Shown here: positions 480 to 34,675 of the stretch, piece by piece
Position numbering within the stretch: position 1 is the stretch's first letter
How the letters are laid out: each line of letters opens with the position of its first letter
Assembly: GCF_004010195.1 (NCBI RefSeq)
Contig: NC_057752.1
Location: 2,605,412 to 2,643,325 of the forward strand
DNA from: Chiloscyllium plagiosum
Lineage: Eukaryota
Direction of reading: 5' to 3'
DNA: 37,914 bases
Notes under the pieces: generated by a model
The model's database searches: none
Told to the model about the DNA's origin: nothing
Seen by the model: only the letters and a program-made list of their open reading frames with translations
Made by a program: the position numbers and the translations under genes

Positions 480-570
480 CGAACTGAAAATGTGTTGCTG
501 GAAAAGCGCAGCAGGTCAGGCAGCATCCAAGGAGCAGGAGAATCGATGTTTCAGGCATAAGCCATTCATT
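480..570 (-). mobile_element. Penelope-like terminal repeat (pLTR) fragment with decayed hammerhead
   Basis: ctgaaaatgtgttgctggaaaagcgcagcaggtcaggcagcatccaaggagcaggagaatcg is shared with 28615, 32281 and (rc) 24325-24385; flanked by ATTCATTGACC at 469-479 and 564-574. Confidence 0.8.
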
Positions 571-687
571 GACCTGCCCAGACCAGAGGTTGTGGCTGAA
601 CCCTGAATTCTCGGCTGACTCCTTCATACAGTATTTAGGGAGTAAAGTTGCTGCTGTCTTACCAGATATCAAACTACTCTTTTATTA

Positions 688-856
688 GTGGCAGTTGGTG
701 GCAGTTTAACCAGAGGGTCACCACACTTCTGACCAGGGGAGAGGATGAGAGAGACCATACTACATGGAAACCTCAGCTGGTGTGAGAATTGAAGCCACGC
801 TGTTGGCATTACCCTGCATTACAAACCAGCCATTCAGCTAACTGAGCTTACTGACC
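688..856 (-). mobile_element. tRNA-derived SINE (family C in this window)
   Basis: rc head agctcagttagctg...cttcaattc is tRNA A/B-box like; homologous copies at 8190-8360 and 16855-17030. Confidence 0.65.
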
Positions 857-859
857 CTT

Positions 860-1510
860 AGCACCTCCCTCAGTGTATGACTTTCAGTCGAGGTGTTAAA
901 ACTGAGGCACCACAGATTCCATGGCACAAATCCAAAAATCCACTTTCATCCTTCCAGCCAATGTTAGGGTGAGATGGTGTCATGGTACCGTCACTGGGTT
1001 AGTAATCAGGGAGTGCTGGTTTGATAGATATGCATTCAAATGCTACCACAGCTGCAAAAAGGAGTCTAAATTGTGGAAATAATTCTGGAATGGGAAGCTA
1101 ATCTCCGTGACTGTGCTCATAAAATACTCATTGATCGTTTTCAAAACCCATCTGCTTCACTAATAGGAAGGAAATCTGCCATCCTTATCTGGTCTGGCCT
1201 ACATGTGACTCCAGGCCCACAGTGTTGCAGCTGGCTCATAACGACCCTCTGAAATGGCTGAGCAAGCCACTCAGTTCAAGGGATGCGTAATAAATGGCTG
1301 ACCTTAAGTGACACCTAAAGCATATCTTAGAAAATGACTTTTTCTTTTGGAAAAAATCAACTAAAAAGCAGGTTAACATCAATTTGCTGTTTGTGAGATC
1401 TTGCTGGGTACAAATTGCCTGTTTTCTGGGAGCTGTGACAACACTTCACAAAGTGCTCATTTGGCTGCAAAGGGTGTGAAAGGTGCTATTGAAATGTAAA
1501 CTTTCTCTCT
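860..1510 (+). mobile_element. Degenerate Deu-domain SINE-like element interrupted by a family A SINE
   Basis: ttgctgtttgtgagatcttgctg...acacttcacaaag...tgaaaggtgctattgaaatgtaaactttc recurs at 13950-14070 and 36410-36920, and (rc) 3650-3800 and 18610-18790; family name recalled, not searched. Confidence 0.5.
970..1330 (+). mobile_element. tRNA-derived SINE (family A)
   Basis: tRNA-like head plus body aaacccatctg..tcactaat..ggaaggaaatctgccatcctta.ctggtctggcctacatgtgactccag shared with about 10 other copies. Confidence 0.8.
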
Positions 1511-1590
1511 TTATAAATGGATGTATCCTGAGAAGCTAAATCCTGTCAGAGACATCCTTAAGTCACTTTGAAAGGAGATTTGTTCTTGCG

Positions 1591-1616
1591 CTCTCTCTCT
1601 CTCTCGCTCTCTCTCA
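1591..1616 (+). repeat. (CT)n microsatellite, imperfect
   Basis: ctctctctctctctcgctctctctc seen directly. Confidence 0.9.
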
Positions 1617-1641
1617 AACTTTATTTTGCATCTGCAACAAA

Positions 1642-1883
1642 ATGGGGTCTGGCAAAACCTCCTTGTATGCCCAGAATTGTCAAGTGGATGGCTTCTCCCC
1701 CCGCCCCAAGGTTAATGGCCATTCTTTGCTTAGGAGCACTCGAGAACGTGTTGTCCTGGGGCACAGCGGAAGGTGGCACACAGTTTATGCTGGTGGTACT
1801 GCCATGGTGATCAATGGCTGCTCTCAGCCAGTGAAAGTGTTCCACTTGGCAAACAATAAGATTGAATTGGTGCCAGACACAAG
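1642..1883 (+). CDS. Candidate first coding exon of an unidentified host gene (MGSGKTSLY...KIELVPDT)
   Basis: Non-repetitive, strong Kozak (caaaATGG), 80 open codons ending at AAG|GTATTG (phase 2), TATAAA at 1512-1517, no ATG between 1542 and 1641. No downstream exon or protein family recognised. Confidence 0.4.
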
Positions 1884-1929
1884 GTATTGGATAGGTTTGT
1901 CAAAAATTGAGCTATCCTGTTGATGGTTA

Positions 1930-2131
1930 GAAGCAAATTGCTGCTGGTGCTGGAATCTGAATGGGAAACAAAAAAATGAGATCACAGCGGGTCAGGCAGC
2001 ATCCATGGAGAAAAACAAACGAATGTTTAGAGTTTAGATGACTCTTCATCTCTGAAGCTCGAAACGTTAGCTTGCTTTGTCTCTATGGATGCTGCCTGAC
2101 CCACTGTGATCTCTGCATGTTTTTGTTTTCT
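1930..2131. mobile_element. Older Penelope-derived fold-back (inverted pLTR pair)
   Basis: Arms gagatcacagcgggtcaggcagcatccatggaga (1978-2011) and tctctatggatgctgcctgacccactgtgatctc (2080-2113) are reverse complements with 2 mismatches; ctcttcatc and ctcgaaacgtt hammerhead remnants lie between. Confidence 0.75.
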
Positions 2132-2298
2132 ACTGATGTTTAGTCCGTGTTGTCCATGCTCAGACACTGTGTAAAGCAACTTCAAACTTCTTTTTTATCT
2201 TTCTGTCTGTTGAGTATCCCTCCAATTCCATCTGAGGAAAAAATACACAGTGGGGTCTTTTTGATAACTTTACATTTTTTTCTTCTTTTGAGTGTAGG

Positions 2299-2480
2299 AG
2301 GAGATGGTGGTGTAGTGATAATGACACTGACTAGAAACCCATGCTAAAGTACTAGGCACACAGTTTACAGTCCCATCATGGCAGACAGTGACATATAAAT
2401 TCACTGAGCACTTGGCCTAATGGCGATTATGAAACCACTGTCAATTATTGTAAAGATCCATTTGTTTCACTTGTTCTTTA
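2299..2480 (+). mobile_element. Family A tRNA-SINE, 5' part
   Basis: ggagatggtggtgtagtgataatgacactgactag...tcccatcatggcaga head matches the other copies. Confidence 0.65.
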
Positions 2481-2584
2481 GAGTGGTTGCTCTTTTAAAA
2501 GTGGGGAATACTGCCAAATTGCCAGTGAAGAATTTGCATGTTGGGACAGCATGGCTTTACATTTTGAAAAATGTGTTTTAAGTT

Positions 2585-3230
2585 ATAGAGATGTATGGCA
2601 AGGAAATAGACCCTTTTGGTGCAATTCATCCATGAGGACCAGATATCCTAAATTAATCTAGTGCCATTTTCCAGCACTTAGCCCATATCCCTCTTAAACC
2701 CTTCCTAATTATATACCCATTCAGATGTCTTTTAAATGCAGTAATTGTACCAGCCTCCACCACATCCTCTGGCAGCTCATTCCATACACTCATCACCCTC
2801 CTATGTGAAAAAGCTGTCCCTTAGGTCTCTTTTAAACCTTCCCTCGTAACCTTAAACCTATGCCCTCCAGTTGTGGGCTCCCCTAACCCGGGGAAAAGAC
2901 CTTGCCTATTCACCTTATCCATGCCCCTCATGATTTTATAAACCTCTATAAGGTCACCCCTCAGCCTCCAACGCTCCAGGGTAAACAGCCCCAGTCTTTT
3001 CAGCCTCTCCTTATAATTCAAACTCTCCAACCCTGGCAACATCTTTCAGAATCTTTTCTGAATCCTTTCAAACTTAATAACAACTTTCCTATAGCAGGGA
3101 GACCAGAATTGAACACTGGTTAGCCACTTATGGAATACAATGTCTTGTACAGATGCAACATGCCATCCCAACTCCTATACTCAATGCACTGACCAATAAA
3201 GGCAAGTGTACATGCGCTTAATGTGTTTAA
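2585..3230 (-). mobile_element. CR1-like LINE 3' fragment (ORF2 C-terminus + 3'UTR)
   Basis: [40 protein letters not shown] is the typical CR1 ORF2 C-terminus. Confidence 0.92.
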
Positions 3231-3469
3231 TGCCCTTTGTCTGTGCATTCTTAACCTTGATGATGCAATTAACATTCCATGAATAAAAGATAATAGTAAT
3301 GCAAGTTGTAGCAATTGGTAAATAAAGGGTGTCAGGAGGAGGAAACTGCATCAATTTGAATGTGTTTCTTGTCCGATGTGCTGTCAGAAGCAGACTCAAT
3401 GGGCTGAATGGCCTATTTCTGCTCCTGAGTCTTATGGTCGTGAGATCTGGTACCTGAGCAATGGTACGT

Positions 3470-3577
3470 ATTCCTGATGAAGGGCTCTTGCCCGAAATGA
3501 CGTCTATTCTCCTGCTCCTCGGATGCTGCCTGACCTGCTGTGCTTTTCCAGCACCACACTCTCTCCTCTATTTCTCC
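3470..3577 (+). mobile_element. Solo Penelope-like pLTR with hammerhead core
   Basis: ttcCTGATGAAGGGCtcttGCCCGAAAtgaCGTC then ggatgctgcctgacctgctg; flanked by TACCTGAGCAATGGT (3451-3465) and TACCTAAGCAATGGT (3578-3592). Confidence 0.82.
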
Positions 3578-3651
3578 TACCTAAGCAATGGTGTCTTGCA
3601 AACTGGTCGCCCCCCCCCCCCCATTTGAGAAGACACAAACTGTGAATAGGG

Positions 3652-3830
3652 GAAAGAAAACTTGCATTTTTGATGTACCTTTCATGATCCAGACATTCCA
3701 AAGTTTTTACAGCGAAATTTCGAAGCATTGTCATTGCAGTTGCAGACAGGAAGTTCTCACAAACAAGAATGTGATAAATAACGGGTGAATCTGTTGTTTC
3801 TTAAGCACGTTTCATTGAAAAATGAAATGT
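3652..3830 (-). mobile_element. Deu-domain SINE-like 3' remnant
   Basis: aagaaaacttgcattt...cctttcatga...ccaaag..tttacagc...ctcacaaaca is the rc of the 1380-1505 tail. Confidence 0.5.
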
Positions 3831-4244
3831 TGTGCAGGGCATTCAAAATGGAAAATGATGCCAAGAACCTTTTTTTTTTCTCCTCCCATTTTTTGGATAT
3901 TTGTGTTTTGGTTGGGACACCACACAATGTACAGATTTCTGGCAGATGTTGTGAGCTGCAAGATCAGGGAGTCCAATTAATGAACACATGAATTGAGAAC
4001 ATCATGAATGTCCAGGCAGTTCAGTATTTGTGAGAGATGATAATTCATCAATTCTCATTGTCCATCTCGGGGATGTTTATCCAACGGAAGAGGCCATTTG
4101 GACCATCATGAAGGTGCTGGCTCCTCTGAGGAGCTACTCAGAGTCCCGTCCCCCCCTCCTTTTTAAAACTCCTTTTCAAGGATTTATCTAAATCCCACTC
4201 ATGGTCAATAAACTGACTGAAGCAACAAATACTGCAGTTAGTGG

Positions 4245-5115
4245 GAAGATGGTTGTATAAGTTGTAGCGTCAATGGTTGTGTAATCCACGGGATAGGAAA
4301 TCAAATCCCACCACGGGATCTGGTAGATATTAAATCCAATAAATAAATCTGGAATTAAAAACTATTCTGAGTCATAGTGACCATGAAACTATGATCAATT
4401 TGTCATAAAAGCCTATTTGGTTCACCAATTCCCTTTTAGGGAAGGAAATCTACTAACTTTACCCAGTCTGGCCTATATGAGACTCCAGATGCATAATTTA
4501 TCAAAGGAAACACCTATGCTGACATTGGAGGCAGTCCAGAGAAGGTTCAATTGGCTAATTCCAGGAATGGAGCGACTGGTTTACGAGGGGAGGTTAAGTA
4601 GGTTGGGCCTTACTCGTTGGAATATTGATAAATGAGAGGTGACCTTATTGAAAGGTACAAAATTCTTAGAGTGGGGCTTGACAGGGGAGATGGGGAAATA
4701 TTGTTTTCCATTGTGAGAGAGTCTAGGACCAAAGGGTATCATCTCAGATTAAGGGGTCGCCCATTTAAAACAGATGTGGAAGAATTTCTTCTGAATGGAA
4801 TTAATCTTGAATTCTCTACTGCTGTCAAGGCTGGGTCATTAAGTATACTGAAGGCTGAGACAGACTTTTAATCAGGAAGGGAAATGAGGGTTATGGGGCA
4901 AAAGGCAGAAAGGTGGAGATAAGGCTTATCTGGTCAGCCACAATCTCATTGAAATGGCGGAGCAGACTTGATGGGCCAAATGTGTGATCAATGTGGTTGA
5001 CTCTTAACTGTGCTTTCAAATAGCCTAGAAATCCACTCCGTTAAAGGACAGTTGGAGGACAGGCAACAAATGTTGGGGCCTTGCCAGTGACACTCCCATC
5101 CCATGAATGAATAAA
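4245..5115 (+). mobile_element. Family A tRNA-SINE split by a CR1 insertion (4245-4490 and 4988-5115)
   Basis: SINE body stops at gactccaga and resumes at caatgtggttgactcttaactg...catcccatgaatgaataaa. Confidence 0.8.
4492..4985 (+). mobile_element. CR1-like LINE 3' fragment
   Basis: LEAVQRRFNWLIPGMERLVYEGRLSRLGL / MRGDLIERYKILR; frameshifted. Confidence 0.9.
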
Positions 5116-5457
5116 TTCAGAAAGAAAATGTGCTCTAATTTCTGAGATGAAGGAGTGGAGAGAGAAACCCGTTCAGTGGCTTGGCCAATGCTGACTGTCA
5201 TTGGCACCAACAAGTCCGGGAAAGTTCGTTTTCTTTGTCGCTTGGAAAGGCTACGCTCTGTGTGCAGCACCTGACTACATCTCCCCACCCCTGCCACCAG
5301 CAACTCGACTTCAACGCAAACCACTGCTAACCTGTCGAAGCCTGTACAGGAACGCCCTAAAGGCAGCACAAGCTTTCTGGTTGTGTTGCATGAGCTCTTT
5401 TCCAAGCCATCTGCCCTTCTGTGAATGAGCTGCATGTTGTTGGGCGTAATTAAAATA

Positions 5458-5470
5458 TGACCTTTGACCT
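5458..5470 (-). promoter_or_regulatory. Perfect nuclear-receptor DR1 element
   Basis: TGACCTTTGACCT (rc AGGTCA A AGGTCA) in non-repeat sequence; function not shown. Confidence 0.45.
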
Positions 5471-5865
5471 TTCAATCGCCTCACTGAGCCAAGGTAGGCC
5501 CCATAGAGTTTCTGAGGTATTTTCTACTCCTTTTTTGTCAAAGAAAATAAATGTCAGTGTTGGTTTTCTTTTCAAGTGTTTTTCTTTTCCTTTTTCCAGC
5601 CTGTTTAAAGCAGCCAAGTCTGATCTTGTTCTTTTCCACCATTTGGATATTTCTCTCTGGTTTCTGCTTGAACTGAGAGTAGAATTGCCAGCTACCATTC
5701 CTGGAGGTTGCCGTGCATGCTTTCACCCTGCCATGGCTCACCCACAATGCCAGTCCTCTTGATGTCCAAGGCCAATCAGACAGCTGCCAATCAAATTGCT
5801 CTTTCTCCCTGTGTCTGACATTCTAACCAAAGAAAAGTTGATAAAAATCTTTGGAAAGAGTGGCT

Positions 5866-6228
5866 TTTTTGGTTTTATTCATCCATGGGATGAGAGCATC
5901 TCCAGCTAGCCCAGCATTTATTGCCCATCCTTGATTGTCCAGAGGGTAGTTGAGAGTCAACCACATTGCTGTGGGTCTGGAGTCACATGTCAGCTAGACC
6001 AGGTAAGGACAGCAATTTCCTTCCCTAAAAGATATTAGTGAACTAGTTGGGTTTTTCCAACCATTGAGAATGGACTTATGGTCATTATTACACTCTTAAT
6101 TTCAGTTTGTTTTGTTGAATTCAATTTTCACCATCTGCCATGGCAGGATTCAAATCCAGGTCCCCAGAACATTTCCTGGGTCTCTGATTAATAGTCCAGT
6201 GATAATATCACTCGGCCATCACCTCCCC
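5866..6228 (-). mobile_element. Family A tRNA-SINE, full length
   Basis: rc of the family A consensus from the head (ccatcacctcccc) to the tail (ttattcatccatgggatg). Confidence 0.85.
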
Positions 6229-7835: not shown

Positions 7836-7892
7836 GTGATTTTGATATTTACACGAGGTGGGAATGTGACTGTGCAGCAACCAAGTACATTT

Positions 7893-8075: not shown

Positions 8076-8189
8076 GCTGAGTGTTGGTGTGGAGGGAATG
8101 AATGTCAAATGTCCCCAACATGGATGGGGTGCTGATGATATAGACCAGGACCAGTGCCAGTAAAGTGGATGTTATCCCAGAGGACCATA

Positions 8190-8869: not shown

Positions 8870-8980
8870 GGTACTGAAATAAAAAGCTGGAGAAACTCTG
8901 CAGGCTTGTCAGCATCATGGGGAGAGAGAGAGAGAAACTGAGTTACTGTTTCAGGTCTGGTATGACTCCTCTTCAGAAAA
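8870..8980 (-). mobile_element. Old Penelope-like pLTR remnant
   Basis: gctggagaaactc..caggcttgtcagcatc...gtttcaggtc...gactcctcttcag resembles the pLTR/hammerhead layout. Confidence 0.5.
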
Positions 8981-8994
8981 GAGACTAAAGCAAG

Positions 8995-9235
8995 TGTGGT
9001 GACATGACAACTATCATTGTTGTTAAACCCCATCTGTTCACTAACATTCTTCAGGGAAGGAAATCTGCTATCCTCACCTGGTCTAGCCTACTTGTGACTC
9101 CAAACCCACAGCGATGTTGCTGAGTCTTAATTGCCCTCAAATGGCAGGGCAAGCCACTCAGTTCAAGGGGCAATTGAGGGATGGGCAACAAGTACTGACT
9201 CTTCCAGTGACACGCACATCCAAGAAAGATTTTTT
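8995..9235 (+). mobile_element. Family A tRNA-SINE, 3' part
   Basis: agggaaggaaatctgctatcctcacctggtctagcctacttgtgactcc...gggcaattgagggatgggcaac. Confidence 0.8.
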
Positions 9236-12304: not shown

Positions 12305-12615
12305 GTGGAGGCGATGACCTAGTGGTATTATCATTAGACCATTCATCCAAGATCCACGTAATGTTCTGAGGGACCGGAGTCTGAATCCTGCCAGCAGATG
12401 GTGGAATTTTAATTAAAAATCTGGATTATTTGTCTAATGATGACCATGAAACTGTTGGGGCGGGGGGGAATAACCCACTTGATTCACAAATGCTCTTCAG
12501 GGAAGGAAATCTGCTGTCCTTATCTGGTATGGCCTACACATGAATCCAAATGTACAATGATATGGTTGACTCTTAACTGCTCTCTGGGCAATATATGGTA
12601 GTCCAGCTAGCACCG
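12305..12615 (+). mobile_element. Family A tRNA-SINE
   Basis: Matches the family A head and body. Confidence 0.8.
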
Positions 12616-12929: not shown

Positions 12930-13222
12930 TCATAGAATCCCTACAGTGTGGAAGCAGGCCATTCGGCCCATCAAGTTGTTTTCGATCATCTGAAGAGCCA
13001 CCCACACCCACCCCATCACCCTGCATTTCCCATGGTTAACCCACCTAGCCTGCACATCATGGGGCAATTTAGCACGTCCAATCCACCTAACCCGCACATC
13101 TTTGGACCGTGGGATGAAAGCCAAAACACCCAGAGCAAACCCGTACAGACGGTCACCTGAGGCTGGGATTGAACTCTGGTGCTGTGAGGCAGCAGTGCTA
13201 ACCACTGAACCAACATGCCACC
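12930..13222 (-). mobile_element. HE1-like V-SINE (family B)
   Basis: rc ggtggcatgttggttcagtggttagcactgctgcctcacagcacc...ccaaagatgtgcgggttaggtggattgg with a CR1-like tail. Confidence 0.85.
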
Positions 13223-14199: not shown

Positions 14200-15142
14200 C
14201 TCCATAAAAGAAAATACGAGGTTGGAAGAATAGAAGTGCTGAATATTATTCAAATGGGGAAGACTGCAGAAAGCTACAGAATTGCCCATAGTGTTCAGGG
14301 ATATGTAGGTTAGGTGCATTAGACATGGGAAATGCAGGGCTACAGGGAAAAGGTAGGGGGAAATGGATCTGGGTGGGATGCTCTTCGGAGATTTGGTGTG
14401 GATTTGTTGGGCCAAATGGCCTGTTTCCACACTGTGAAGGGGTTCTCTGAGAGAACACAGTGACTTGGGAGTCCTCATCACGAATTGCAATAAACTAGCA
14501 TCCAAATTCTGCAGGTAGTAGGAAAGGCAAATGGAATGTTGGTCTTTCTTTCCAAGGGAATGGAGTATAAAAATTGGGAGAATTTGCTAAAATTATACAA
14601 AGTACTAGTCAGGCCACAGCTGGAATACTATGAACAGTTTTGGGCCCTTTATCCAAGGAAAGATAGACTGGCATCACAGGCGGTCCAGAGAAGGTTCATT
14701 TGGCTGTTACCAAGTATGGAGAGACTGTCTTATGAGGAGAGGTTGAGTAGGTTAGGCCTGTACTCACGAGTTTAGAAAAATGAGAGGTGACCTTATTGAA
14801 ATCCAAGATTCTTGGGGGAGTTGACAGGTTAGATGTGGAGAGGTTGTTTCCCCTTGTGAGTGTGTCTAGGAACAGAGGGCATCATCTCAGAATAAGGGGT
14901 CGCCCATTTAAGATTGAGATGAGGAGGAATTTCTTCTAAGGATTGTGAATCTGTGGAAATGTTTACTGCAGAGGGCTGTTGAGGCTGAGTCATTGATTGT
15001 ATTCAAGGCTGAGAGATTTTGTTTTACTTAGTAAGGGATTGGAGAGTCATGGAGTAAAGACAGGAAAGTGGAGTAGATCTCATTGAAAGGTGGAGCAGAC
15101 TCGATAGACTGAATGGTCTACTCCTACGTCTTATGGTCTAAC
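14200..15142 (+). mobile_element. CR1-like LINE 3' fragment interrupted by an HE1 3' half
   Basis: MLVFLSKGMEYKN...LYKVLVRPQLEYYEQFWALY...[27 protein letters not shown]; ends cctacgtcttatggtct. Confidence 0.92.
14279..14437 (+). mobile_element. HE1-like SINE, 5'-truncated
   Basis: aattgcccatagtgttcagggatatgtaggttaggtgcattag...gggccaaatggcctgtttccacactgt is the rc of 16245-16400. Confidence 0.8.
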
Positions 15143-16245: not shown

Positions 16246-16558
16246 AGAATCCCTACAGTGTGGAAACATGCCATTTGGCCCTTTGAGTCCATACTGCCTT
16301 TCTGAAGAGCATCCCACCTAGACCCTCCCTATCCCTGTAATCCTGCATTTGCCATGGCTAATCCACCTAACCTACACATCCCTGAACACTATGGACAATT
16401 TAGCATGGCCAATCCACCTAACCTGCACATCTTTGGACTGTGGGAGGAAACCCATGCAGACACAGGGAGAATGTGCAGTTGCCTGAGGGTGGAATCAAAC
16501 TTGGGGTCCTTGATGCTGTGAGGCAGCAGTGCTAACCACTGAGCTACTATGCCACCCT
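16246..16558 (-). mobile_element. HE1-like V-SINE
   Basis: Full-length rc copy: tgctgtgaggcagcagtgctaaccactgagc head and cacatctttggactgtgggaggaaacc central domain. Confidence 0.88.
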
Positions 16559-18204: not shown

Positions 18205-18528
18205 TCATAGAATTATAGAATCCCTGCAGTGTAGAAACGGGTTATTTGGCCCAACAAATCCACATTGACCATCTGAAGAATATCCCACCCAGACCTATTA
18301 CCCCTACCCTATTGCTCCACATTTCCCCTGACTAATGCACCTAGCCTAGGCATCCCTGAACACTACGGGCAATTTAGCTTGGCCAATTCACCTGACCTGC
18401 ACCTCTTTGGACTGTGGGAGGAAACTGGAGCACCCGGAGGAAACCCACACAGACAACCACCCAAGGCTGGAATCGAACTTTGGGTCCCTGGCACTGTGAA
18501 GTAGCAATGCTAACCACGGTTAGCCACC
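18205..18528 (-). mobile_element. HE1-like V-SINE
   Basis: ctttggactgtgggaggaaactggagcacccggaggaaacccacacagaca V-domain-like core; (catagaat) tail repeats. Confidence 0.88.
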
Positions 18529-21534: not shown

Positions 21535-22556
21535 ATGACTCTAGATAGAGGCCATTCAGTCCATGTCTGCACCTGCTCTTCAAACCAGCATCATTCCCTA
21601 ATGCCAATCTCCTGCATTTACACTGCACTCCATTTCTATCCAAATAACCATCCAATGGCTCATTTCTGATGAAGGGCTTATGCCCAAAACGTTGATTCTC
21701 CTGCTCCTCGGATGCTGCCTGATCTGCTGTACATTCCTGCACAATACTCTCGACTCTGATCTCCAGCATCTGCATCCTCACTTTCCCTTAGTTGATTTTA
21801 ACTCTAATGCAAAGCCTCTTCCAAGGATGCCTATCTTGAAGAAGTTCTCCTCCCCTCTCGACAAGGATCTCAGTGAGTCTCTTTCTCACTGCATTCCCCT
21901 GGTTATATCTGCTTTGAAGCTCTTCAGCCACGTCCTGAAACAGACTCACTACCACAGCCACATCTCCTTCCTCAGTGCCTACCTACAGAATCGACTGATC
22001 CTGCATTGACTCCGGATCACATTCAGACCAACACAATTTGGATCTGAACAGGACAACTAGTACCTACTACAAATCTGAACCCTTCAGAAACTGTTCTCCT
22101 TCTGGATCCTCCGCTCCACACTTGCAGCCATGTGTCGCCACCTAATCTTGTCATTCCTCATGAAGGGCTTATGCCCGAAACGTCAATTCTCCTGCTCCTT
22201 GGATGCTGCCTGAACTGCTATGCTTTTCCAGCACCATATTGTCGACTCTGATCTCCAGCATCTGCAGTCCTCCCTTTCTCCTAAGCATCCAATGCCCCTC
22301 TTAAATGCTTCAATTGAACCTGCATTTCCAGGCATTGTATTCCAGACCCGAAGTGCTTGCTGGGTGAGAAAGGGTTTTCCTTGCTACATATTTGCTTGTT
22401 GTGTAAAACACTTTAAAACACACACTCTGCTTCTTGATCTGTTTCCAAATGGGAACATATTCTCCCCATCCACTCTGTCCAAGCCCCTCATGATTTTGAA
22501 AACTTCTGTCAAAATCCCCTCATAGCCTTCTCCTTTCCAAGGAAAACTGTCCCAAT
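21535..22556 (-). mobile_element. CR1 3' fragment split by a Penelope-like insertion (21535-21657 and 22286-22556)
   Basis: The CR1 rc tail resumes after the insert; CATCCAATG is duplicated at 21649-21657 and 22286-22294. Confidence 0.75.
21660..22285 (+). mobile_element. Penelope-like element remnant: pLTR - ORF N-terminus - pLTR
   Basis: Direct repeats of about 130 bp (21660-21790 and 22151-22283), each with a hammerhead core carrying one substitution; the internal frame HSHISFLSAYLQNRLILH resembles the PLE N-terminal HxxFLxxCxxxxLIPxGL motif. Confidence 0.85.
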
Positions 22557-23397: not shown

Positions 23398-24029
23398 CAA
23401 CGACTGGCTGCCAGGTAGCTCTGCTAGGTGACCAGGATCCAGGAACGAAAAGGAACTTTTAGCATTTTGATTGGGTAATGTTAACAATTGGATCACACAA
23501 TGCTAAGAAAAGTCCCTTTAAAGCTCAGTGCTAGTTGTGTGAATGGGAGCTCGTACTCTGGTGTGAATTCACAACCTTGTGGGAGGTGTTTAAGATCACC
23601 GATCAAAAGCAGAAATACCTAGAAATACACAGATGCGTCATTATTTGAAAAGGAGAAAAGGTTAACCTGTTCTTTCCAGATATTGATGCATTACTGTTGT
23701 TCTTTTGCAGCACTGTTTTATTTTAGCCTTGTATTTTACTGTAAGAAAACTGATGGGGAATAGAAATAGGAAACTGGGAATGTTTGACAGCTAAATGTTG
23801 GGAATAGTCGAGAGTCAGATCTCCGTTTCCTTGGAGAGGGTGGGAGTGAGGTCCCTGTGGCTTTGTTGCCACAGACACAAACACAGACTCTTATCATCTT
23901 ATCTTACCTCCCTGTGCCCAGCTCATCTCCCTTAGAAACAGTTCTATATTTGTCTCTCTCTTAATTCACCCAGCAGCATAGTTGTTCACTTTGCGAGTTT
24001 GGGTTGTGTGTATGTGGCTGCTTTTGCAC

Positions 24030-24244
24030 CTTCACACACATCATTTACTGCATCCGCTGCACCTGATGTGGCCTCCTCGATATTGGGGAGACAGGCCGCC
24101 TACTTGCGGAACGTTTCAGAGAACACCTCTGGGACACGCGGACCAACCAACCCAACCACCCCGTGGCTCAACACTTCAACTCCCCCTCCCACTCCACCAA
24201 GGACATGCAGGTCCTTGGACTTCTCCATCGCCAGACCATAGCAA
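24030..24244 (+). mobile_element. Penelope-like GIY-YIG endonuclease remnant
   Basis: Manual translation HIIYCIRCT*CGLLDIGETGRLLAERFREHLWDTRTNQPNHPVAQHFNSPSH: IYCI-C-x2-C...(Y>D)IGETGR..R..EH, with a stop; absent from the ORF track. Confidence 0.88.
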
Positions 24245-24386
24245 GTCCCTCCTCCCTACCTTTTATCTTAGCCTGCATGGCACACTCTCCTCATTCCTGA
24301 AGAAGGGCTCATGCCCGAAACGTCGATTCTCCTCCTTGGATGCTGCCTGACCTGCTGCGCTTTTCCAGCAACACATTTTCAGCTCT
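24245..24386 (+). mobile_element. Penelope-like pLTR with intact hammerhead core (24297-24324)
   Basis: attcCTGAAGAAGGGCtcatGCCCGAAACGTCgatt; near-identical to the rc of 28615-28756. Confidence 0.88.
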
Positions 24387-25308
24387 GCTTTTCTACACTC
24401 AACCCCCACCCTCAACCCCTCGCTGCTCCCTTCCCAACCCTCAGTCACAGACTCCTAACAAAATGTTCCCTGTCGGCATCCAAATAAAAGGACTGACGTG
24501 AAGGCCTGTAAAATGTCAGCTATAAACTTGGACATACGTCTGTTGATTTCACTGAAGTCAACTGATGTCTCTCCAAGTGCATAGTTGACACTTTACAGAC
24601 CCCCACCTCCCCCAGTTACAGGCAATCTATCGCGCAAGGAGAACGTGGTGCCTTTTTCACGCATTTAACCTGCTGTTGAAAGGGATAAAGGATGCGGTTT
24701 GCAAGCGCAGATAGCTTTGTACGTTTGCTTCCCAAATCCACCCACTGGCTTACATCACCGCACATTTGGAAGTATTTAGCCAAAGCTGAGTTGCCAATGT
24801 TTTGACAGAAACTGAAACCGTCACGTTGCATTGAGAGGGGAGTCAAAAGTGTGGTCAATCCTATCAGCAACAGAGAGACTTTGTGCCACTGTTGAGGTGA
24901 GGAAGTGAAACGAGTACCTGGGGTAGGGCTAAATGTTTCCACCATCACCCCTCCCTGGGCAGAGGTCATATTGGGGGGTCATCATGGCAGTGTGCCCCTG
25001 CCCAGTCAACTGGTAAGCAAACGTGGCTCAAGTGACTCTTGAGTGTCGGTCTTTCCTTTGTCCCGTGGCCAACTCATTTTTGAATAACTGCTATAAAAAT
25101 GTAGAAAGCTTTTTTTTTATAATTTCATACCTCAAGTCATTTTATGGTTTCCTCACAGCGTGTCTAGGTTATTTAATCCAACATCTCGTGAGACATGGTT
25201 GATGACTTCAGCCATTTTTTTTGCAGCGCCATGCAAACATGTCTCCAAGCGATGGGTTTCATTCCAATTTCTCTCAAACCATCTCCCCAAGGTTTGGAGA
25301 ATGACCAG

Positions 25309-26915: not shown

Positions 26916-27170
26916 TGAAACTTTATTGCTGGAACAGCACAGCAGGTCAGGCAGCATCCAGGGAACAGGAGATTCGACGTTTCGGGCACAGGCCCTTCTT
27001 CAGGAATCCTGAAGAAGGGCCTGTGCCCGAAACGTCGAATCATTCCTGAAGAAGGGCCTGTGCCCGAAACGTCGAATCTCCTGTTCCCTGGATGCTGCCT
27101 GACCTGCTGTGCTGTTCCAGCAATAAAGTTTCAACTTTGATCTCCAGCATCTGCAGACCTCACTTTCTCC
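26916..27170. mobile_element. Young Penelope-like fold-back pLTR insertion with three hammerhead cores
   Basis: Perfect 94-bp IR (26914-27007 / 27042-27135); 15-bp TSD TTTCTGATTTTGGGT (26901-26915, 27171-27185). Confidence 0.92.
27042..27077 (+). ncRNA. Minimal type I hammerhead ribozyme motif
   Basis: AUUC-CUGAAGA-A-GGGC(CUGU)GCCC-GAAAC-GUC-GAAU: stem I AUUC/GAAU, stem II 4 bp, palindromic ACGU stem III. Confidence 0.8.
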
Positions 27171-28299: not shown

Positions 28300-28614
28300 G
28301 TCGCCCTGCTATAGAAAGGATATTGTTAAATTGGAAAGGATGCAAAAATGATTTACCAGGATATTGCCAAGACTGGAGGGTTTGAGCGATAAGGATAGGC
28401 TAGGACTTTATTCACGGAAGTGTCGGAGGTTGAGGGATGACCTATAGAAGTTTATAAAATGATGAGGTGCATAGATAAGGTAAATGACAAGTGTCTTTTT
28501 CTGAGGGTGGGGCATTCAAAACTGGGGAGTGTACTTTTAAGGTGAGAGGAGAAAGATTTAAAAGGGACCTGATGGGCAACTTTTTCACAGAGGGTGGTTT
28601 GTATGTGGAATGAA
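28300..28614 (+). mobile_element. CR1-like LINE 3' fragment truncated by a pLTR
   Basis: ttgagggatgacctatagaagtttataaaatgatgagg...aactttttcacagagggtgg...tggaatgaactg. Confidence 0.85.
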
Positions 28615-28773
28615 CTGAAAATATGTTGCTGGAAAAGCGCAGCAGGTCAGGCAGCATCCAAGGAGCAGGAGAATCGACGTTTCGGGCGTGAGCCCTTCTT
28701 CAGGAATGAGGAAAGTGTACCAAGCAGGCTAAGATAAAAGGTAGGGAGGAGGGACTTGGGGGAGGGGCGTTGG
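28615..28773 (-). mobile_element. Penelope-like pLTR with intact hammerhead (28676-28703), running into the gap
   Basis: rc CTGAAGAAGGGCtcacGCCCGAAACGTC. Confidence 0.88.
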
Positions 28774-29292
28774 NNNNNNNNNNNNNNNNNNNNNNNNNNN
28801 NNNNNNNNNNNNNNNNNNNNNNNNNNNNNNNNNNNNNNNNNNNNNNNNNNNNNNNNNNNNNNNNNNNNNNNNNNNNNNNNNNNNNNNNNNNNNNNNNNNN
28901 NNNNNNNNNNNNNNNNNNNNNNNNNNNNNNNNNNNNNNNNNNNNNNNNNNNNNNNNNNNNNNNNNNNNNNNNNNNNNNNNNNNNNNNNNNNNNNNNNNNN
29001 NNNNNNNNNNNNNNNNNNNNNNNNNNNNNNNNNNNNNNNNNNNNNNNNNNNNNNNNNNNNNNNNNNNNNNNNNNNNNNNNNNNNNNNNNNNNNNNNNNNN
29101 NNNNNNNNNNNNNNNNNNNNNNNNNNNNNNNNNNNNNNNNNNNNNNNNNNNNNNNNNNNNNNNNNNNNNNNNNNNNNNNNNNNNNNNNNNNNNNNNNNNN
29201 NNNNNNNNNNNNNNNNNNNNNNNNNNNNNNNNNNNNNNNNNNNNNNNNNNNNNNNNNNNNNNNNNNNNNNNNNNNNNNNNNNNNNNNNNNNN
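28774..29292. other. Assembly gap
   Basis: N run. Confidence 1.
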
Positions 29293-29692
29293 TTTAGAAG
29301 ATTAAGGGGAAATCTAATAGAAACTTACAAGAAAACTACATGGCTTGGAGAGGGTGGATGCTAGGAAATTGTTTCCGTTAGGCGAGGAGACTAGGACCCG
29401 TGGACACAGCCTTAAAATTAAAGAGGTTAATTCAGAACAGAAATGCGGAGACATTTCTTCAGCCAGAGAGTGGTGGGCCTGTGGAATTCATTGCCACAGA
29501 GTGCAGTGGAGGCTGGGACGCTAAATGTCTTCAAGGCAGAAATTGATAAATTCTTGATGTCACAAGGAATTAAGGGCTACGGGGAGAATGCGGGTAAGTG
29601 GAGTTGAAATGCCCATCAGCCATGATTGAATGGCGGAGTGGACTCGATGGGCCGAATGGTCTTACTTCCGCTCCTATGTCTTATGGTCTTAT
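29293..29692 (+). mobile_element. CR1-like LINE 3' end
   Basis: FRRLRGNLIETYK...; tail gctcctatgtcttatggtctta. Confidence 0.9.
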
Positions 29693-29854
29693 AGCCCTTG
29701 AGTCTGTTTAGCCACACATTCAACTCATGTCTGATGTGGATTGAACATCACCAGCTCTGTCCAGGGTCATTTCAACTCGGCCCTCTTAATAATTTTCTAG
29801 CAACGAAAGTTAAGCAAATGGACAGAGAATCTCGCAGGTTCAATTTCTTGCCTG

Positions 29855-29987
29855 TTATTCTATCGCACTCCTGACTTGTACCTTGTAGATGGTGAACAGG
29901 CTTTGGGGAGTCAGGAAGAGAGTTATTTGCTGCAGATCTCTAGCCTCTAACCTGTTCTTGTAGTAACTGTGTTTGCATGATGAGTCC
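29855..29987 (-). mobile_element. L2-like LINE RT C-terminal remnant, probably continuing at 30785-31125 and near 32100
   Basis: LTPQSLFTIYKVQVRSAIE resembles the LINE IYKxxVRxxxEY motif. Confidence 0.6.
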
Positions 29988-30783
29988 AAAGAACAAACAA
30001 AATTTACAGCCCAGGAACAGGCCCTTTGGCCCTCCAAGCCTGAGCGATCCAAATGTACTGTCTAAACCTGTCGGTCAATTCCTAAGCACCTGTATCCCTC
30101 TGCTCTCCACCTACTCATGCATCTGTCCAGACGCATCTTAAATGAATCTACCGTGCCTGCCTTTACCACCTCTGCTGGCAATGCGTTCCAAACGCCCACC
30201 ACCCTCTGTGTGAAGTACTTGCCGCCTGTATCCCCCTTAAAATTTCCACCTCTCACCTTGAAAGCGTGACCTCTCGTAATTGAATCCTTCACCCTGGGCA
30301 AAAGCTTGTCTCTATCCACCTTGTCTATACTCTTCATGATTTTGTAAACCTCAATCAGGTTCCCCCCTCAATCTCCATTTTTCTAATGAAAATAAACCTA
30401 ACCTACTCAATCTCTCTTCAAAGCTAGCACCTTCCATACCAGGCAACATCCTTGTAAACCTTCTCTGCACCCTCTCCAAAGCGTCCACATCCTTTTGGTA
30501 ATGTGGTGTCCAGAACTGTACACAGTATTTTTAAAGCGGCCGAGCCAATGTCTTGTACAATTTTAACATGACTTGCCAGCTCTTATACTCAATACCCCAT
30601 CCAATGAAGGCAAGCATACTATATGCCTTCTTGACCACTCTATCCATCTGTGCAGCAAACTTCAGGGTACAATGGACCTGCACTCCCAGATCTTTCTGCC
30701 CATCAACTTTTCCCAAGGCTCTTCCGTTCATTGTATAATTTGCTCTAGAATTAGTCTTGCCTAAATTCATCACCTCACATTTG
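29988..30783 (-). mobile_element. CR1-like LINE 3' fragment
   Basis: KCEVMNLGKTN...KDLGVQVH...KKAYSMLAFI...LYKTLARP and FTQRVVGVWNALP. Confidence 0.93.
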
Positions 30784-31127
30784 TTGAGTTTCTCGTCAGT
30801 GGTATCTCCCAGGATATTGATGGAGTTCCAACAGATTGATAGTACAGCAGTTGGCTCAAATACAGGAACTAGGAGCAAGTCAGTTTCTAGTTAATGGTAA
30901 CCTCCAGGCTACATTTTCCCTCACTTTTTCTTGTGCTGACATCCATTTGCAGAAGTGAATGGGTCAGCATGGCAATCAGCATGTGTGGGATCACTGAGTG
31001 GCTGTGTGGTAGCAGATTAGAAGGAATGTTCCCTTTGGACGTTGACAGTGATGGTAACACCGTTGAACATCAAGGGGCAATAGTTTGATTGTCTTGTTGG
31101 AGAGGTGTTGGCCTGCTGGTGTTATCA

Positions 31128-31430
31128 CAGAATCCATACAGTGTGGAAGCAGGCCATTCAGCCCATCGAGTGCATACTGATTGTCCAAAGAGTGTCCCAC
31201 CCAGACTCTCCCTCTTACATTTTCCCTAAAACCCTGCATTTTCCATTGCTAATCCACCTGGCCTGCACATCTTTGGACTGTGGGAGGAAACTGGAGAAAT
31301 CAGAGGAAACTCATTCTGACACGGGGAGAATGTGCAAACCCCACACAGACAGTCGCCTGAGGCTGAAATCAAACTCGGGTCATTGGTTCTATGAGGCAGC
31401 AGTGCTAACCACTAAGCCACTCTGTCACCC
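31128..31430 (-). mobile_element. HE1-like V-SINE
   Basis: rc copy with head tgaggcagcagtgctaaccactaagccac. Confidence 0.88.
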
Positions 31431-31432
31431 CA

Positions 31433-32095
31433 AATTATTGCTAGACTATTAATCCAGAGACCCAGATAATGTTTTGGGGACCTGGACTCTAATCTCGCCA
31501 TGGCAGATGGTAAAGTTTAAATTCAATAAAAAATCTGGAATTTGGGACGGCACGGTGGCTCAGTGGTTACCACTGCTGCCTCACAGCACCAGGGACCCGG
31601 GTTCGATTCCAGCCTCGGGCAGCTGTCTGTGTGGAGTTTGCACGTTCACCCCATGTCTGCGTGGGTTTCCTCCAGTACTCTGGTTTCTTCCCACAATCCA
31701 AAAGATGTGCACATCAGGTTAATTGGCCGTGTTAAATTGTCCGTAGTGTTAGGTGCATTAGGCAGGGGTAAATATAGGTTTGGGGTGGGTTAGTCTTCAG
31801 AGGGTCGGTGTGGACTTGTTGGGCTGAGGGGCCTGTTTCCATACTGTAGGGAATCTAATCTAAAAAGAGTCTAATGATGACTATGAATCATTGCCGATTG
31901 TCAGGAAAGACCCATCTGATTCACTATAATGTCCTTTAGGGAAGGACATGTTTGTGCTTACCTGGTCTGGCCTACGTGTGACTCCAGACCCATAGCAATG
32001 TGGCTGACTCTCCACTGCCCTCTGGGCAATTAGGGATGGACAATAAATGCTGGCCCAGCCTGAGGTATCCACAGCCCATAAGTGACTATGAAAAA
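31433..32095 (+). mobile_element. Family A tRNA-SINE split by HE1 (31433-31543 and 31866-32095)
   Basis: aaatctggaatt | aagagtctaatgatgac continuity across the insert. Confidence 0.82.
31545..31863 (+). mobile_element. HE1-like V-SINE, full length
   Basis: A box TGGCTCAGTGG, B box GGTTCGATTCC, V-domain-like core, CR1-like tail ending aatctaatcta. Confidence 0.92.
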
Positions 32096-32217
32096 ATATG
32101 GTCATTGCCTGGCATTTGTGTTTGCCCTGTAATGCCTTTTAACAGCATTATAGGGACATTTATCTCAGAGTCCTAACACAACTGAATATAAATTATAATG
32201 ATAATCAATTAAAGAGA

Positions 32218-32675
32218 ACTGGTGGCATTGTGGTAATCTCAGTGCATTAATAATCCAGAACCCCAAACTAACTTTCTGGGGTGAAAATGTGTTGCTGGAA
32301 AAGCGCAGCAGGTCAGGCAGCATCCAAGGAACAGGAGAATCGACGTTTTGGGCATAAGCCCTTCTTCAGGAACTTTCTGGGATTCCTCCTTTCTGGGGAC
32401 CTGGGTTCGAATCCCACCATGGCAGATGGTGGGATCTGAATTCAATAAAATTCTGGAATAAGAAGCTAGTCTAAAAGTGACATTTTCAATTGTTGTAAAA
32501 CCCTATCTGATTCATTACTGTCTTTTGCGGAAGAAAATCTTACCTGGCCTGGTCTATGTGTGACTCCAAATCCACAGAATGGGATTGACTTTGAACTGCC
32601 CTCCAGGCAACTGGGATGAGTAATGAATGTAGGGTGCAGACACCAATGGGCCATTCTGTGAAAGAATTAAACAAA
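32218..32675 (+). mobile_element. Family A tRNA-SINE split by a pLTR
   Basis: Head ggtggcattgtggtaat...; B box GGTTCGAATCC at 32404 after the insert. Confidence 0.8.
32281..32370 (-). mobile_element. Solo Penelope-like pLTR with hammerhead (one core substitution)
   Basis: Flanked by AACTTTCTGGG at 32270-32280 and 32371-32381. Confidence 0.88.
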
Positions 32676-33544
32676 AGACTTTGTGACGACAGTTATGCAG
32701 AGTTTGCTTTTCAAATCACCTCATCGCGTCAAGAAAGTTGCTGGCTCAAAGCAGGACTGAGGGAGTGCTGTGTTGCCAGGAGCATGGCCTTTCAGATTAC
32801 CTTTTCAAGGCGTGGGAACGCTCCCCCAGTACCCCTGTGTTCCCCTCCCCCAACATGAGGTCTGTGAACTCTTCCCCTCTACCTTTCCCCCCCCAATCTC
32901 CTGGTGTAAGGCCTGTGAACATTCCCCCTATTCAATTCCACATTACCATCACAAGAGATGGGATGGTGAAAACGGTAATCGTTGTATATTGACTGATCTA
33001 TCTTCTTCTGCACTTAAAATAGCCTGACCGATTAAGGTCACGTCAGGCGGGCTGCTATGGTGTGGAATAGTAATGGGTCCGCATTCAGGTAAGCAAGTTC
33101 TCAGATAAAAGCAAAATAAACACACAGTGCAGCCTGCTTATTATCAAACCGGTTTGTGCTTGAATCCTGAAGATTGTAATAAAACACTATCCAGCATTCA
33201 GTGTCTGTCACCACACCCCTGATACATGCGATAACATTAGCTCTGTCCACCTACCTGTTGGAGCTGATGTAGCCACGAAAACCTGGCTCTCCTCCTCCTA
33301 TCTTACCCCAAGTCAGGTGGATTTGCAAAGCAGGCCCAGTTTCTTCTTCAGATCTGCCACAGACTGCCTCCTTTGCCTGCCCACTGCCTATAAATGCCAG
33401 CAGCTGAGAGTCTATAGGGCCTAGCTCCCGAACCTGTATCCATCCTGGAGGTAGGTACTAATGTATGCCTGACCTAGCAGAGCTCACTGCTCCGATCCAA
33501 TGCTTTTTGAAAGACCTCACTTTGGGTTTAAACCTTCTGAATAT

Positions 33545-34255
33545 AATGTGAGAAATGTGAGTTTGTGCACTTTGGCAGGAATAATAGAGATGCTGAATAT
33601 TATTTAAATGGAGAAAGAGTTCTGAGAAATTTGGGAATCACAAAAGTTAGCATGCAAATTCAGTGGGTAATAAGGAAGGCAAATGGAATGTTGGCCTTTT
33701 AAACAAAGGGAATGGAGTTTAAATGTAGTAGGGTTTGCTAAAACTATACAACGCACTAGGAAGATCTCAGCTGGAATACTGTGAACAGTTTTGGGTTACT
33801 TACCTGAGGAATGATATCGTGGCATTGAACGCCATCCAGAGAAGGTTCACTTGGCTGACCCTGGATATGGAGGGACTGTCTTATGAGAGATTGAGTAGGT
33901 TGAGCCTGTACTCATTGGAATTTGGAAGAATGAGAGGAGACTAGGTTGAAACATACAAGACTTTTAGAGAACTTAATGAGGTAGATGTGGAAAGGTTGTT
34001 TTCCCTTGTAGGAAAGTCTAGAATATGAGGGCATCAGCTCAGAATAAGGATTGTCCATTTAAGACAGTGAGGAGGAATTTCTTCTCTCTAAGGGTAATGA
34101 ATCTGTGGAATTTTTTTTACCAGAGGGCTGTTGAGGCTGGGCCGTGAAGTATATTCAAGATTGAGATAGGGAATATCAGGAAGGGAATCGAAGGCTATCG
34201 GGGAAAAAGCAGTAGAGTGGAGTTGAGGATGATCAGACCAGCCATGATCTCATTT
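33545..34255 (+). mobile_element. Older CR1 3' fragment; its last bases resume at about 35680-35737
   Basis: LKLYNALGRSQLEYCEQFWVTYLRNDIVALNAIQRRFT...; the tail breaks at gccatgatctcatt. Confidence 0.88.
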
Positions 34256-34528
34256 AGACAATCGACAATAGACAATAGGTGCAGGAGTAGGCCATTCTGC
34301 CCTTCGAGCCTGCACCACCATTCAATATGATCATGGCTGATCATCCTTAATCAGTATCCTCTTCCTGCCTTATCTCCATAACCCTTGATTCCACTATCCT
34401 TGAGAGCTCTATCCAACTCCTTCTTAAATGAATCCAGAGACTGGGCCTCCACTGCCCTCTAGGGCAGAGCATTCCACACAGCCACCACTCTCTGGGTGAA
34501 GAAGTTTCTCCTCATCTCTGTCCTAAAT

Positions 34529-34675
34529 GAGGTAAAAACAATGACTGCAGATGCTGGAAACCAGATTCTGGATCAATGGTGCTGGAAGAGCACAGCAGTT
34601 CAGGCAGCATCGAGGAGCTTCAGCAAAATCGACGTTTCGGGCAAAAGCCCTTCATCAGGAATAAAGGCAGAGAGC
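34529..34675 (-). mobile_element. Penelope-like pLTR (distinct subfamily) with intact hammerhead (34631-34658)
   Basis: rc attcCTGATGAAGGGCttttGCCCGAAACGTCgatt. Confidence 0.88.

Follow-up and report, generated by a model that had tools for sequence, protein, structure and literature searches.

Penelope-like retrotransposons (PLEs) of the EN+ type are defined by a C-terminal GIY-YIG nuclease that has a CCHH motif and lies immediately 5′ of the pseudo-LTR (pLTR). Their reverse transcriptase (RT) is telomerase-like and shares one open reading frame (ORF) with the nuclease, target-site duplications vary in length, and partial tandems, inverted pLTRs and an optional tail of 30–40 bp occur. The Penelope/Poseidon clade, in contrast to Neptune and Nematis, lacks a Zn-finger linker connecting the RT to the nuclease. 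Minimal hammerhead ribozymes (min-HHRs) of PLEs have been found from cnidarians to reptiles and follow the consensus CUGANGAH G..C GAAAN NUH, with a stem I of 2–6 bp, no loop III and an extra base after A9; their action as dimers is a literature model, and their in vitro activity is low (PMC4209133). In the Poseidon element PAc of Anolis carolinensis, the one vertebrate element tested, insertion needed the element's protein, not hammerhead cleavage, and reverse transcription starts at two sites 30–40 nt apart (Frangieh et al. 2024, PMC11167929).

We analysed a window of 37,914 nt from the carpet shark Chiloscyllium plagiosum (GCF_004010195.1, NC_057752.1, positions 2,605,412 to 2,643,325, forward strand), in which an earlier note had described a family of such hammerheads. 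PLE min-hammerheads have been known across metazoans since 2014, and the shark family is a further example. A literature search returned nothing on Penelope hammerheads in sharks or on elasmobranch hammerhead ribozymes; no shark name among those looked for occurs in two of the three supplementary files of PMC4209133, and the remaining supplement may list shark motifs.

Hammerhead motifs and the insertions that carry them

The minimal type I layout (CUGANGA-A, 4-bp stem II, GAAA-CG-UH) occurs ten times in the window. Motifs are numbered here by C3; on the minus strand these are 27003, 28703, 32369 and 34658, for which the earlier note used the low coordinate (C17). That note had proposed a search with a type I hammerhead model, and a min-HHR descriptor run over the whole window recovered the motif at every core position listed. 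Six of the 11 sites have exact cores with a 2-nt CG palindrome (24297, 27003, 27009, 27046, 28703 and 34658), the number claimed; nine have at most one mismatch; and 3474, whose stem III carries a 3-nt insertion, was found in addition to these nine. In 20 block-shuffled windows the descriptor found no match. Rfam returned eight matches to the window at E up to 10, with no hammerhead family among them; one of these, to MIR408 at 1966–2123, was rejected because it is an inverted pair of distant relatives described below (family E).

As separate copies, the sites are fewer. The identical motifs 27003, 27009 and 27046 lie in one insertion and 21666 and 22157 in another, so the 11 sites, correct as positions, reflect only eight insertion events. 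Duplications of 8–15 bp, evaluated against 300 null trials, bound six of these eight, and the remaining two end in N gaps. Diagnostic downstream blocks divide the copies into four groups (A–D).

In group A, a pLTR head at 480–563 (minus strand; offsets +9 to +93; the 572 copy) is bounded by an exact 11-bp duplication (469–479/564–574; null 0/300) and so starts inside stem II, with no CUGANGA box. What had been taken at 545–570 for a decayed hammerhead is thus a 5′-truncated one, its seeming CUGANGA being target DNA. A second head, at 32281–32370 (minus strand; min-HHR 32342–32369 with G12>A), also has an exact 11-bp duplication (32270–32280/32371–32381; 0/300). The insertion at 24026–24384, within an 8-bp duplication (24018–24025/24385–24392; 4/300), joins a broken endonuclease fragment to an intact core at 24297–24324 (plus strand). 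The copy at 28613–28773 (minus strand; intact min-HHR 28676–28703) comprises the element's 3′ end and a pLTR head, matches 24242–24336 at 95% and loses its 5′ side in an N gap.

Group B includes a pLTR head with tail end at 3466–3577 (plus strand; hammerhead 3474–3504), flanked by a 15-bp duplication with one mismatch (3451–3465/3578–3592; 0/300). It also includes a partial tandem at 21658–22281 (plus strand), a single insertion with a 13-bp duplication (21645–21657/22282–22294; 1/300) and a 491-nt unit, in which a pLTR head and the start of the ORF are followed by a second head with tail. Descriptor search and alignment show both of its cores to be damaged (21666–21693 by G12>A and C17>U, both CpG transitions, and 22157–22184 by G5>C). 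Group C is one insertion at 26916–27170 with an exact 15-bp duplication (26901–26915/27171–27185), consisting of an inverted pLTR head, a hammerhead-only tandem (period 37, 1.9 copies) and a pLTR head with tail; the inverted arms are 94 nt long and 100% identical. Its three intact motifs lie at 26976–27003 (minus strand), 27009–27036 (plus strand, the first tandem unit) and 27046–27073 (plus strand). Group D, with 73–80% identity to the other groups, is a copy with tail at 34530–34675 (minus strand; intact min-HHR 34631–34658) whose 5′ side is lost in an N gap.

The earlier list was incomplete: nhmmer revealed two distant, decayed relatives. Family E is an inverted pair at 1959–2131 (E 4.3e-6 and 8.6e-6) whose stem II reads GAGT/ACTC in place of GGGC/GCCC; family F, at 8886–8979 (minus strand; E 0.021, best control match E 1), has kept a CUGAAGA box and lost G12. 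Neither has a significant target duplication (null 22/300 and 205/300, respectively).

The endonuclease fragment at 24028–24243 (plus strand) begins, in translation, a few residues before a GIY-like motif and has a CxxC between this and a YIG-like motif, with two later His. From these motifs and a Pfam match below the cut-off (PF01541, E 0.027), it is probably a GIY-YIG nuclease; it shares its duplication-bounded insertion with min-HHR 24297 and is joined to the element's 3′ end through an internal deletion, with loose ends at 24242. The broken 5′ part of the ORF lies at 21827–22144 (plus strand, with in-frame stops), and its first 60 residues match carpet-shark proteins P0002–P0006 and P0009 at 56–77%. 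These homologous proteins begin about 160 nt after C3, which makes coding constraint on the hammerhead motif unlikely; in PAc, by contrast, the ORF starts at stem II (PMC11167929). The window holds no PLE RT domain or whole ORF. No RT match was found in the seven relatives of the ORF start (P0002–P0006, P0008 and P0009), and none of 170 candidates proved to be a longer relative. Searches for full-length ORF proteins matched one of 18 candidates in one case and gave eight matches in another, one of them a plant PPR protein rejected as a chance match. By eye, degenerate GxKF- and DKG-like motifs are present at the end of P0009.

The motifs share with metazoan PLE min-HHRs the consensus, the A9 insertion (an A before G10.1 in 8/8 cells), the G10.1–C11.1 pair, the palindromic CG at 15.2–16.2, a short stem I, the location in the pLTR, and the occurrence of mostly solitary copies with some inverted pairs (PMC4209133). 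The CG, with no loop III, is present in seven of nine aligned copies, the others being 3474 with its insertion and 572 with a CpG change. Stem II, with one difference in 71 cells, is 4 bp long, whereas many published examples have 5–8 bp (PMC4209133). As in the Penelope elements of Adineta vaga (PMC3846280), an inverted pLTR with a junction palindrome carries a tail on one arm only, and duplications (8–10 bp in Adineta), solo pLTRs and an initiator-like motif are present. Several Adineta solo pLTRs, ascribed to recombination, lack duplications (PMC3846280), whereas the shark solo heads have them, which makes these heads primary insertions. Together, the consensus match, the adjacent GIY-YIG fragment, the target duplications, the tail, and the inverted and partial-tandem layouts bear out the identity proposed earlier: as the best explanation of the whole, these motifs are very probably minimal type I hammerheads of endonuclease-bearing PLEs and sit on the pLTR's 5′ edge.

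The 37-nt unit, repeated head to tail so that two intact motifs follow each other, raises a different reading, in which the short copies are monomers of non-LTR retrozymes spread through self-cut circular RNAs. Like the shark copies, retrozymes of this type derive from PLEs, carry a type I hammerhead and occur as dispersed monomers, and they have been reported in one chondrichthyan (Li et al. 2026, bioRxiv 10.64898/2026.07.22.740005). Among DNA contigs, joints from 24327 to 24293/4 are seen repeatedly, at low depth. They form multi-unit arrays, however, with complete hammerheads in tandem units of 51–972 bp in print (bioRxiv 10.64898/2026.07.22.740005). The window has a single such tandem among two arrays, with a unit below that range, a joint 3–5 nt past the cut site rather than at it, and a position within a perfect hairpin of 94 bp in which the motif is buried. 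In the 491-nt partial tandem of group B, both cores are damaged. The copies also have PLE tails and duplications, and the 5′ edge at which they end is fixed. We therefore consider retrozyme monomers very unlikely.

Constraint between groups and decay of copies

The earlier note had counted at least three subfamilies, and the downstream blocks bear this out with four groups, although C and D are single insertions and tree support outside the identical pair is only 0.63–0.84. Its description of a varying stem II loop, T or A at N7 and constant GGGC/GCCC is accurate for the listed copies, and comparison of core with loop variation, which it had suggested, gave a clear contrast: between groups, none of 23 core and stem II positions differs, versus three of five free and 24 of 64 downstream positions. 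Differences from the majority fall in 6/199 constrained cells (five being CpG transitions), 12/44 free cells and 63/572 downstream cells, cells that are not independent in Fisher tests. For this count, nine target-DNA columns of the 572 copy were masked, 27003 and 27009 were dropped as duplicates of 27046, and the insertion in 3474 was ignored.

Genome-wide reads from two organisms gave 54,578 and 45,557 contigs, respectively, on a 221-nt stretch, contig depth not being copy number. Among 40 of 100 rows of contig variants, four of five free positions vary (up to 52–81%), as do three of 23 constrained positions, all by CpG transitions (1.4–12%). A 19-nt non-ribozyme block downstream (24339–24357) likewise has no variant among these rows, so the motif is not alone in being strongly conserved. 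The abundance seems to exceed the 4,000–9,000 copies of coelacanth and Xenopus (PMC4209133), although contig counts are not copy numbers.

It is extremely unlikely that this conservation is due only to the recent shared ancestry of a young repeat, with loop changes concentrated by chance. Only eight independent events are available, two groups are single insertions, and identity between groups A and B (77–90%) overlaps with identity within them (84–98%), all of which would suit that explanation; yet downstream positions diverged while core and stem II did not, the pattern recurs genome-wide in two organisms, and the motif matches a consensus common to cnidarians through reptiles (PMC4209133). 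Constraint between subfamilies is real, and individual copies decay by CpG loss.

Whether the fold itself was kept under selection, as proposed, is answered in part. The claim stands for the source lineages as sequence constraint; it fails in that stem II lacks covariation within the main family, three of the four groups have a U.U mismatch in stem I, and copies decay at CpG sites. Families E and F do change stem II on both sides (four two-sided cells, 3/500 shuffles), in two decayed copies only. Stem I of groups A, B and D has two contiguous pairs, the U.U and one further pair, the mismatch position being unpaired in 7/8 cells, unlike published PLE min-HHRs (PMC4209133); in group C it has four pairs, and the U.U is also closed in 4–13% of the depth of organism A.

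Thermodynamic folding supported neither stem I nor the double-hammerhead form. Folding energy is not unusual in three of four intact monomers (z −0.2 to −0.5), and outside group C the predicted pairing probability of stem I is near zero. For each of the four intact types, folding as a double hammerhead costs 5–14 kcal/mol relative to the dimer optimum. Junctions of this kind are underrated by nearest-neighbour models. An in-cis dimer of 27009 and 27046 was rejected because the 94-bp hairpin dominates on either strand, with energies near −212 and −215 kcal/mol.

Insertion ends and the RNA template

In 7/11 copies (4/8 insertions), the 5′ end lies within 8 nt upstream of C3, and none lies at the cut site. 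The 3′ ends form two sites about 35 nt apart: relative to C3, the short set ends at +88, +88, +89 and +93 (and, by eye, at about +91 for 28703), and the long set at +125 and +125 (by eye, about +128 for 34658), with 3474 ending in the same sequence. This spacing equals the 30–40-bp tail, or the distance between RT start sites, of the anole element. Shark copies and PAc also share the hammerhead in the pLTR, an ATT at the 5′ edge and, probably, insertion from unprocessed RNA (PMC11167929). Since the copies extend across GUC, we infer that the short insertions are pLTR heads reverse-transcribed from uncut RNA. A poly(A) single-cell run, the only one used and a weak test, showed no pile of read ends at the cut site or the presumed start. 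Raw-read depth rises across 24328–24343, which copies starting near the cut site could also produce.

Uncut templates, the interrupted stem I and the missing covariation in the main family would also fit a motif of hammerhead descent that no longer cuts and is kept for another job, as an internal promoter or as an RNA element to which the PLE protein binds. Penelope's internal promoter sits just downstream of its start in the literature, and mutating the anole hammerhead leaves insertion in vitro normal, with no RNA ends mapping to the cut site; yet in the presence of its protein the anole motif does cut (PMC11167929). Moreover, what varies is N7 and loop II, positions that hammerheads leave free, published min-HHRs likewise have a stem I of 2–4 bp (PMC4209133), group C and part of organism A close the U.U, and families E and F changed stem II two-sidedly. 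On this evidence, a motif kept for another job and no longer cutting appears unlikely.

A proposed route of insertion

For the PLE hammerheads, we propose the following route. Transcription would begin a few nucleotides 5′ of the core, at an initiator-like TCATTCC, or the transcripts would be resolved there by the element's nuclease, at ATT. The PLE protein would nick DNA and start reverse transcription inside the RNA at about +90 or +125 from C3; a run to the RNA 5′ end would leave a 90–130-nt insertion with an 8–15-bp duplication, and template switches would give the inverted and partial-tandem forms. The templates would be uncut, as the copies run through GUC. In active masters, the motif would cleave slowly after GUC, as a dimer joined at the ACGU palindrome and/or assisted by the element's protein, and this would keep the core constrained; dispersed copies would be inert and decay neutrally.

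We tentatively suggest, as a possibility that is far from certain, that the first 90–130 nt of the carpet-shark Penelope transcript (start site, hammerhead and two RT start sites) form a self-contained SINE-like unit, which inserts from uncut RNA with its own target duplication, about once per 4–5 kb in the window. Stem I would be compromised because its 5′ strand doubles as the start-site motif, and the core would therefore be kept by a protein-dependent or non-cleaving role.

As an identification alone, the family carries little weight, such hammerheads having been known for years. Its insertion boundaries, however, agree with the internal-initiation model that was demonstrated in vitro with the anole element, here in a second vertebrate lineage, and point to uncut RNA as the usual template. 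The role of the PLE hammerhead is still called unclear in print, and a large shark family would allow constraint to be measured position by position. If the SINE-like reading is true, tens of thousands of variants, together with natural 37-nt double-hammerhead units, would amount to a ready-made mutational scan of that role.

Penelope-type hammerhead motifs in the window

The hammerhead motif was found in the window sequence at every site listed in the earlier note. Its start-of-core nucleotide, C3, lies at 3474, 21666, 22157, 24297, 27009 and 27046 on the plus strand and at 27003, 28703, 32369 and 34658 on the minus strand, where the numbers given earlier were low coordinates rather than C3. 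The motif runs in the order CUGA(A/U)GA, extra A, GGGC-NNNN-GCCC, GAAA, CG, UC. A descriptor search of the window returned six exact cores and nine with at most one mismatch, and 20 shuffled windows returned 0 matches. Of the six intact cores, three are identical parts of one insertion event. A profile made from eight copies, whose own scores are circular, matched the window at 11 main-family and three distant sites (1981-2010, 2054-2111 and 8886-8979); in the reversed window, its top match reached only E 1. In Rfam, none of the eight matches to the window is a hammerhead. The intervals 1959-2131, an inverted pair of which one arm carries a tail, and 8886-8979 represent two further distant, decayed hammerhead-bearing repeat families with a GAGT-type stem II.

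Within the insertion that holds 24297, translation of 24028-24243 yields a broken GIY-YIG nuclease, which falls under the Pfam cut-off against PF01541 (E 0.027). Two cysteines lie between its GIY- and YIG-like motifs, followed by two histidines, the arrangement stated to be the hallmark of Penelope-like element (PLE) nucleases (PMC8557442, text available in part). A broken ORF start lies between 21666 and 22157, and its first 60 residues match Hemiscyllium, Chiloscyllium, Stegostoma and Rhincodon proteins at 56-77%, a match that assigns the window to the carpet sharks; protein searches found an RT domain in none of seven relatives of this ORF start and no longer relative. The tail closes, at 21773-21792, with a pyrimidine run and then AG immediately ahead of the ORF region; this resembles a 3′ splice site, and no clear donor to pair with it was seen. 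PLEs often keep a 5′ intron.

The motif fits the consensus and feature list for PLE minimal type I hammerheads in the available part of PMC4209133, which reports them from fish, coelacanth, frog and reptiles. The motifs are real and were correctly named as Penelope hammerheads; they are an ordinary example of an already known class. The accessible text of a 2026 preprint (bioRxiv 10.64898/2026.07.22.740005) describes PLE-derived retrozymes in one chondrichthyan. The shark literature found, including the available part of PMC6155905, held nothing relevant on PLE hammerheads, and supplementary lists may hold shark examples.

Insertions and neighbouring repeats

Downstream diagnostic blocks divide the copies into group A (24297, 28703, 32369 and a minus-strand copy at 572), group B (3474, 21666 and 22157), group C (the 27003/27009/27046 event) and group D (34658); identity does not cleanly part A from B, and the tree gives these groupings modest support. 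Target duplications, searched for and scored against 300 random zones, are exact and 11 bp long at both 572 and 32369, and 15 bp with one mismatch at 3474. An exact 15-bp duplication flanks 27003/27009/27046 together, a 13-bp one flanks 21666 and 22157 together, and an 8-bp one flanks 24026-24384 (null, 4/300). Because grouped sites share duplications, the 11 sites represent eight insertions, or one per ~4.6 kb of non-N sequence. The supposed decayed core at 545-570 is not one, as the 572 copy begins within stem II and the preceding letters are target DNA.

The 28703 and 34658 copies extend into N gaps (~28774-29291 and 34676-35137), which start directly at the upstream side of intact-core copies and may therefore conceal longer, young Penelope bodies.

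Several Penelope heads sit inside non-LTR (LINE) fragments, presumably CR1-like. RT and 3′-end fragments of this kind are many, at 35158-35364 (−; Pfam RVT_1, E 1.5e-5), 37122-37742 (−), 30062-30890 (−), 14494-15140 and 33540-34260. SINE-like copies lie head to head at 31303-31436 and 31539-31672 (81% complementary) and also at 12934-13150, 16246-16481 and 18217-18455. A dispersed repeat family with a unit of at least ~110 nt occupies 1137-1249, 9026-9138, 12472-12584 and 31910-32022.

Public sequences 80% alike were aligned to 24200-24420, giving 54,578 contigs from set X1 (organism A) and 45,557 from X11 (organism B), depths that do not equal copy number, 4,412 contigs from X15 and 2,582 raw RNA reads from X21, on both strands. 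At 27007-27078 lies a head-to-tail 37-nt unit comprising the hammerhead only; joints like its own (24327 back to 24293/4) are seen again in the two organisms' DNA contigs, as are inverted joints at 24293, in each case at low depth. The partial tandem, inverted arm and one-arm tail seen among window copies are forms described for PLEs in the available parts of PMC8557442 and PMC3846280.

Copy ends and the template RNA

The 3′ ends fall into a shorter class (+88, +88, +89 and +93 from C3, and ~+91 by eye for 28703) and a longer class (+125, +125, and ~+128 by eye for 34658), and the 3474 copy, which has undergone an internal deletion, ends in the same sequence as the longer class. The spacing of 35 nt between classes matches the 30-40-bp tail that separates two internal RT start sites in Poseidon of Anolis carolinensis (PMC11167929, in part).

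Seven of the 11 copies (4/8 insertions) start with TCATT or ATT, at most 8 nt upstream of C3. Another starts at +9, three reach further upstream and none of the 11 starts at the base after GUC. Loose read ends pile up before 24293-24294 in at least 189 raw X21 reads and at least 34 X15 contigs among the matches listed. The TCATTCC at the 5′ edge agrees with a vertebrate initiator consensus. This edge could be set by an initiator-type transcription start, Penelope having an internal promoter (PMC2377424, in part), or by a nuclease preferring ATT, as the anole enzyme does within its own pseudo-LTR (pLTR; PMC11167929, same portion); the two are indistinguishable here. Under either cause the template RNAs crossed the GUC cut site intact. 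Copying from uncut RNA is shared with the anole system, in which unprocessed RNA is the main substrate (PMC11167929, same portion).

Constraint and folding

Constraint was counted over nine rows, leaving out 27003 and 27009 as duplicates, masking nine columns of 572 and ignoring the 3474 insertion. Of the constrained cells, 6/199 were off majority, five of the six being CpG transitions, versus 12/44 for N7 plus loop II (Fisher p 2.5e-6); the downstream figure is 63/572 (p 2.8e-4), and cells are not independent in either test. Group majorities differ at 0/23 constrained, 3/5 free and 24/64 downstream positions. In the public sequences aligned to 24200-24420, among the 40 listed of 100 variant rows, variants from C3 to C17 comprise N7 (5-29%), loop positions 1-3 (position 2 at 52-81%) and three CpG transitions (G12, C15.2 and G16.2; 1.4-12%). 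A downstream 19-nt block is likewise without variant in the same 40 of 100, which counts against motif-specific constraint.

Thermodynamic folding gave stem II a predicted probability of 0.8-1.0 in every core-bearing copy folded and stem I one near zero outside group C. In groups A, B and D, stem I has U·U at its third pair, where 7/8 cells are unpaired; the change closing it occurs in organism A at 4-13% and in organism B at 0.1%. Two-sided changes in stem II are absent within the main family, and four such cells appear only once two decayed distant copies are added (3/500 shuffles). In the available text of PMC4209133, PLE hammerhead monomers are inactive and dimer activity is low; the dimer model recurs in a review (PMC6765202, in part). 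For the four intact types, the predicted double-hammerhead form is less stable than the dimer optimum by 5-14 kcal/mol, and the only in-cis intact pair, 27009/27046, lies in a 94-bp hairpin.

As a pattern, the sequences thus support a hammerhead that was kept constrained in its source lineages, and give no backing for activity of the window copies. More tentatively, and as a rather doubtful possibility, the pLTR head would be a SINE-like unit mobilised from uncut RNA, with a hammerhead that is protein-dependent or non-cleaving.
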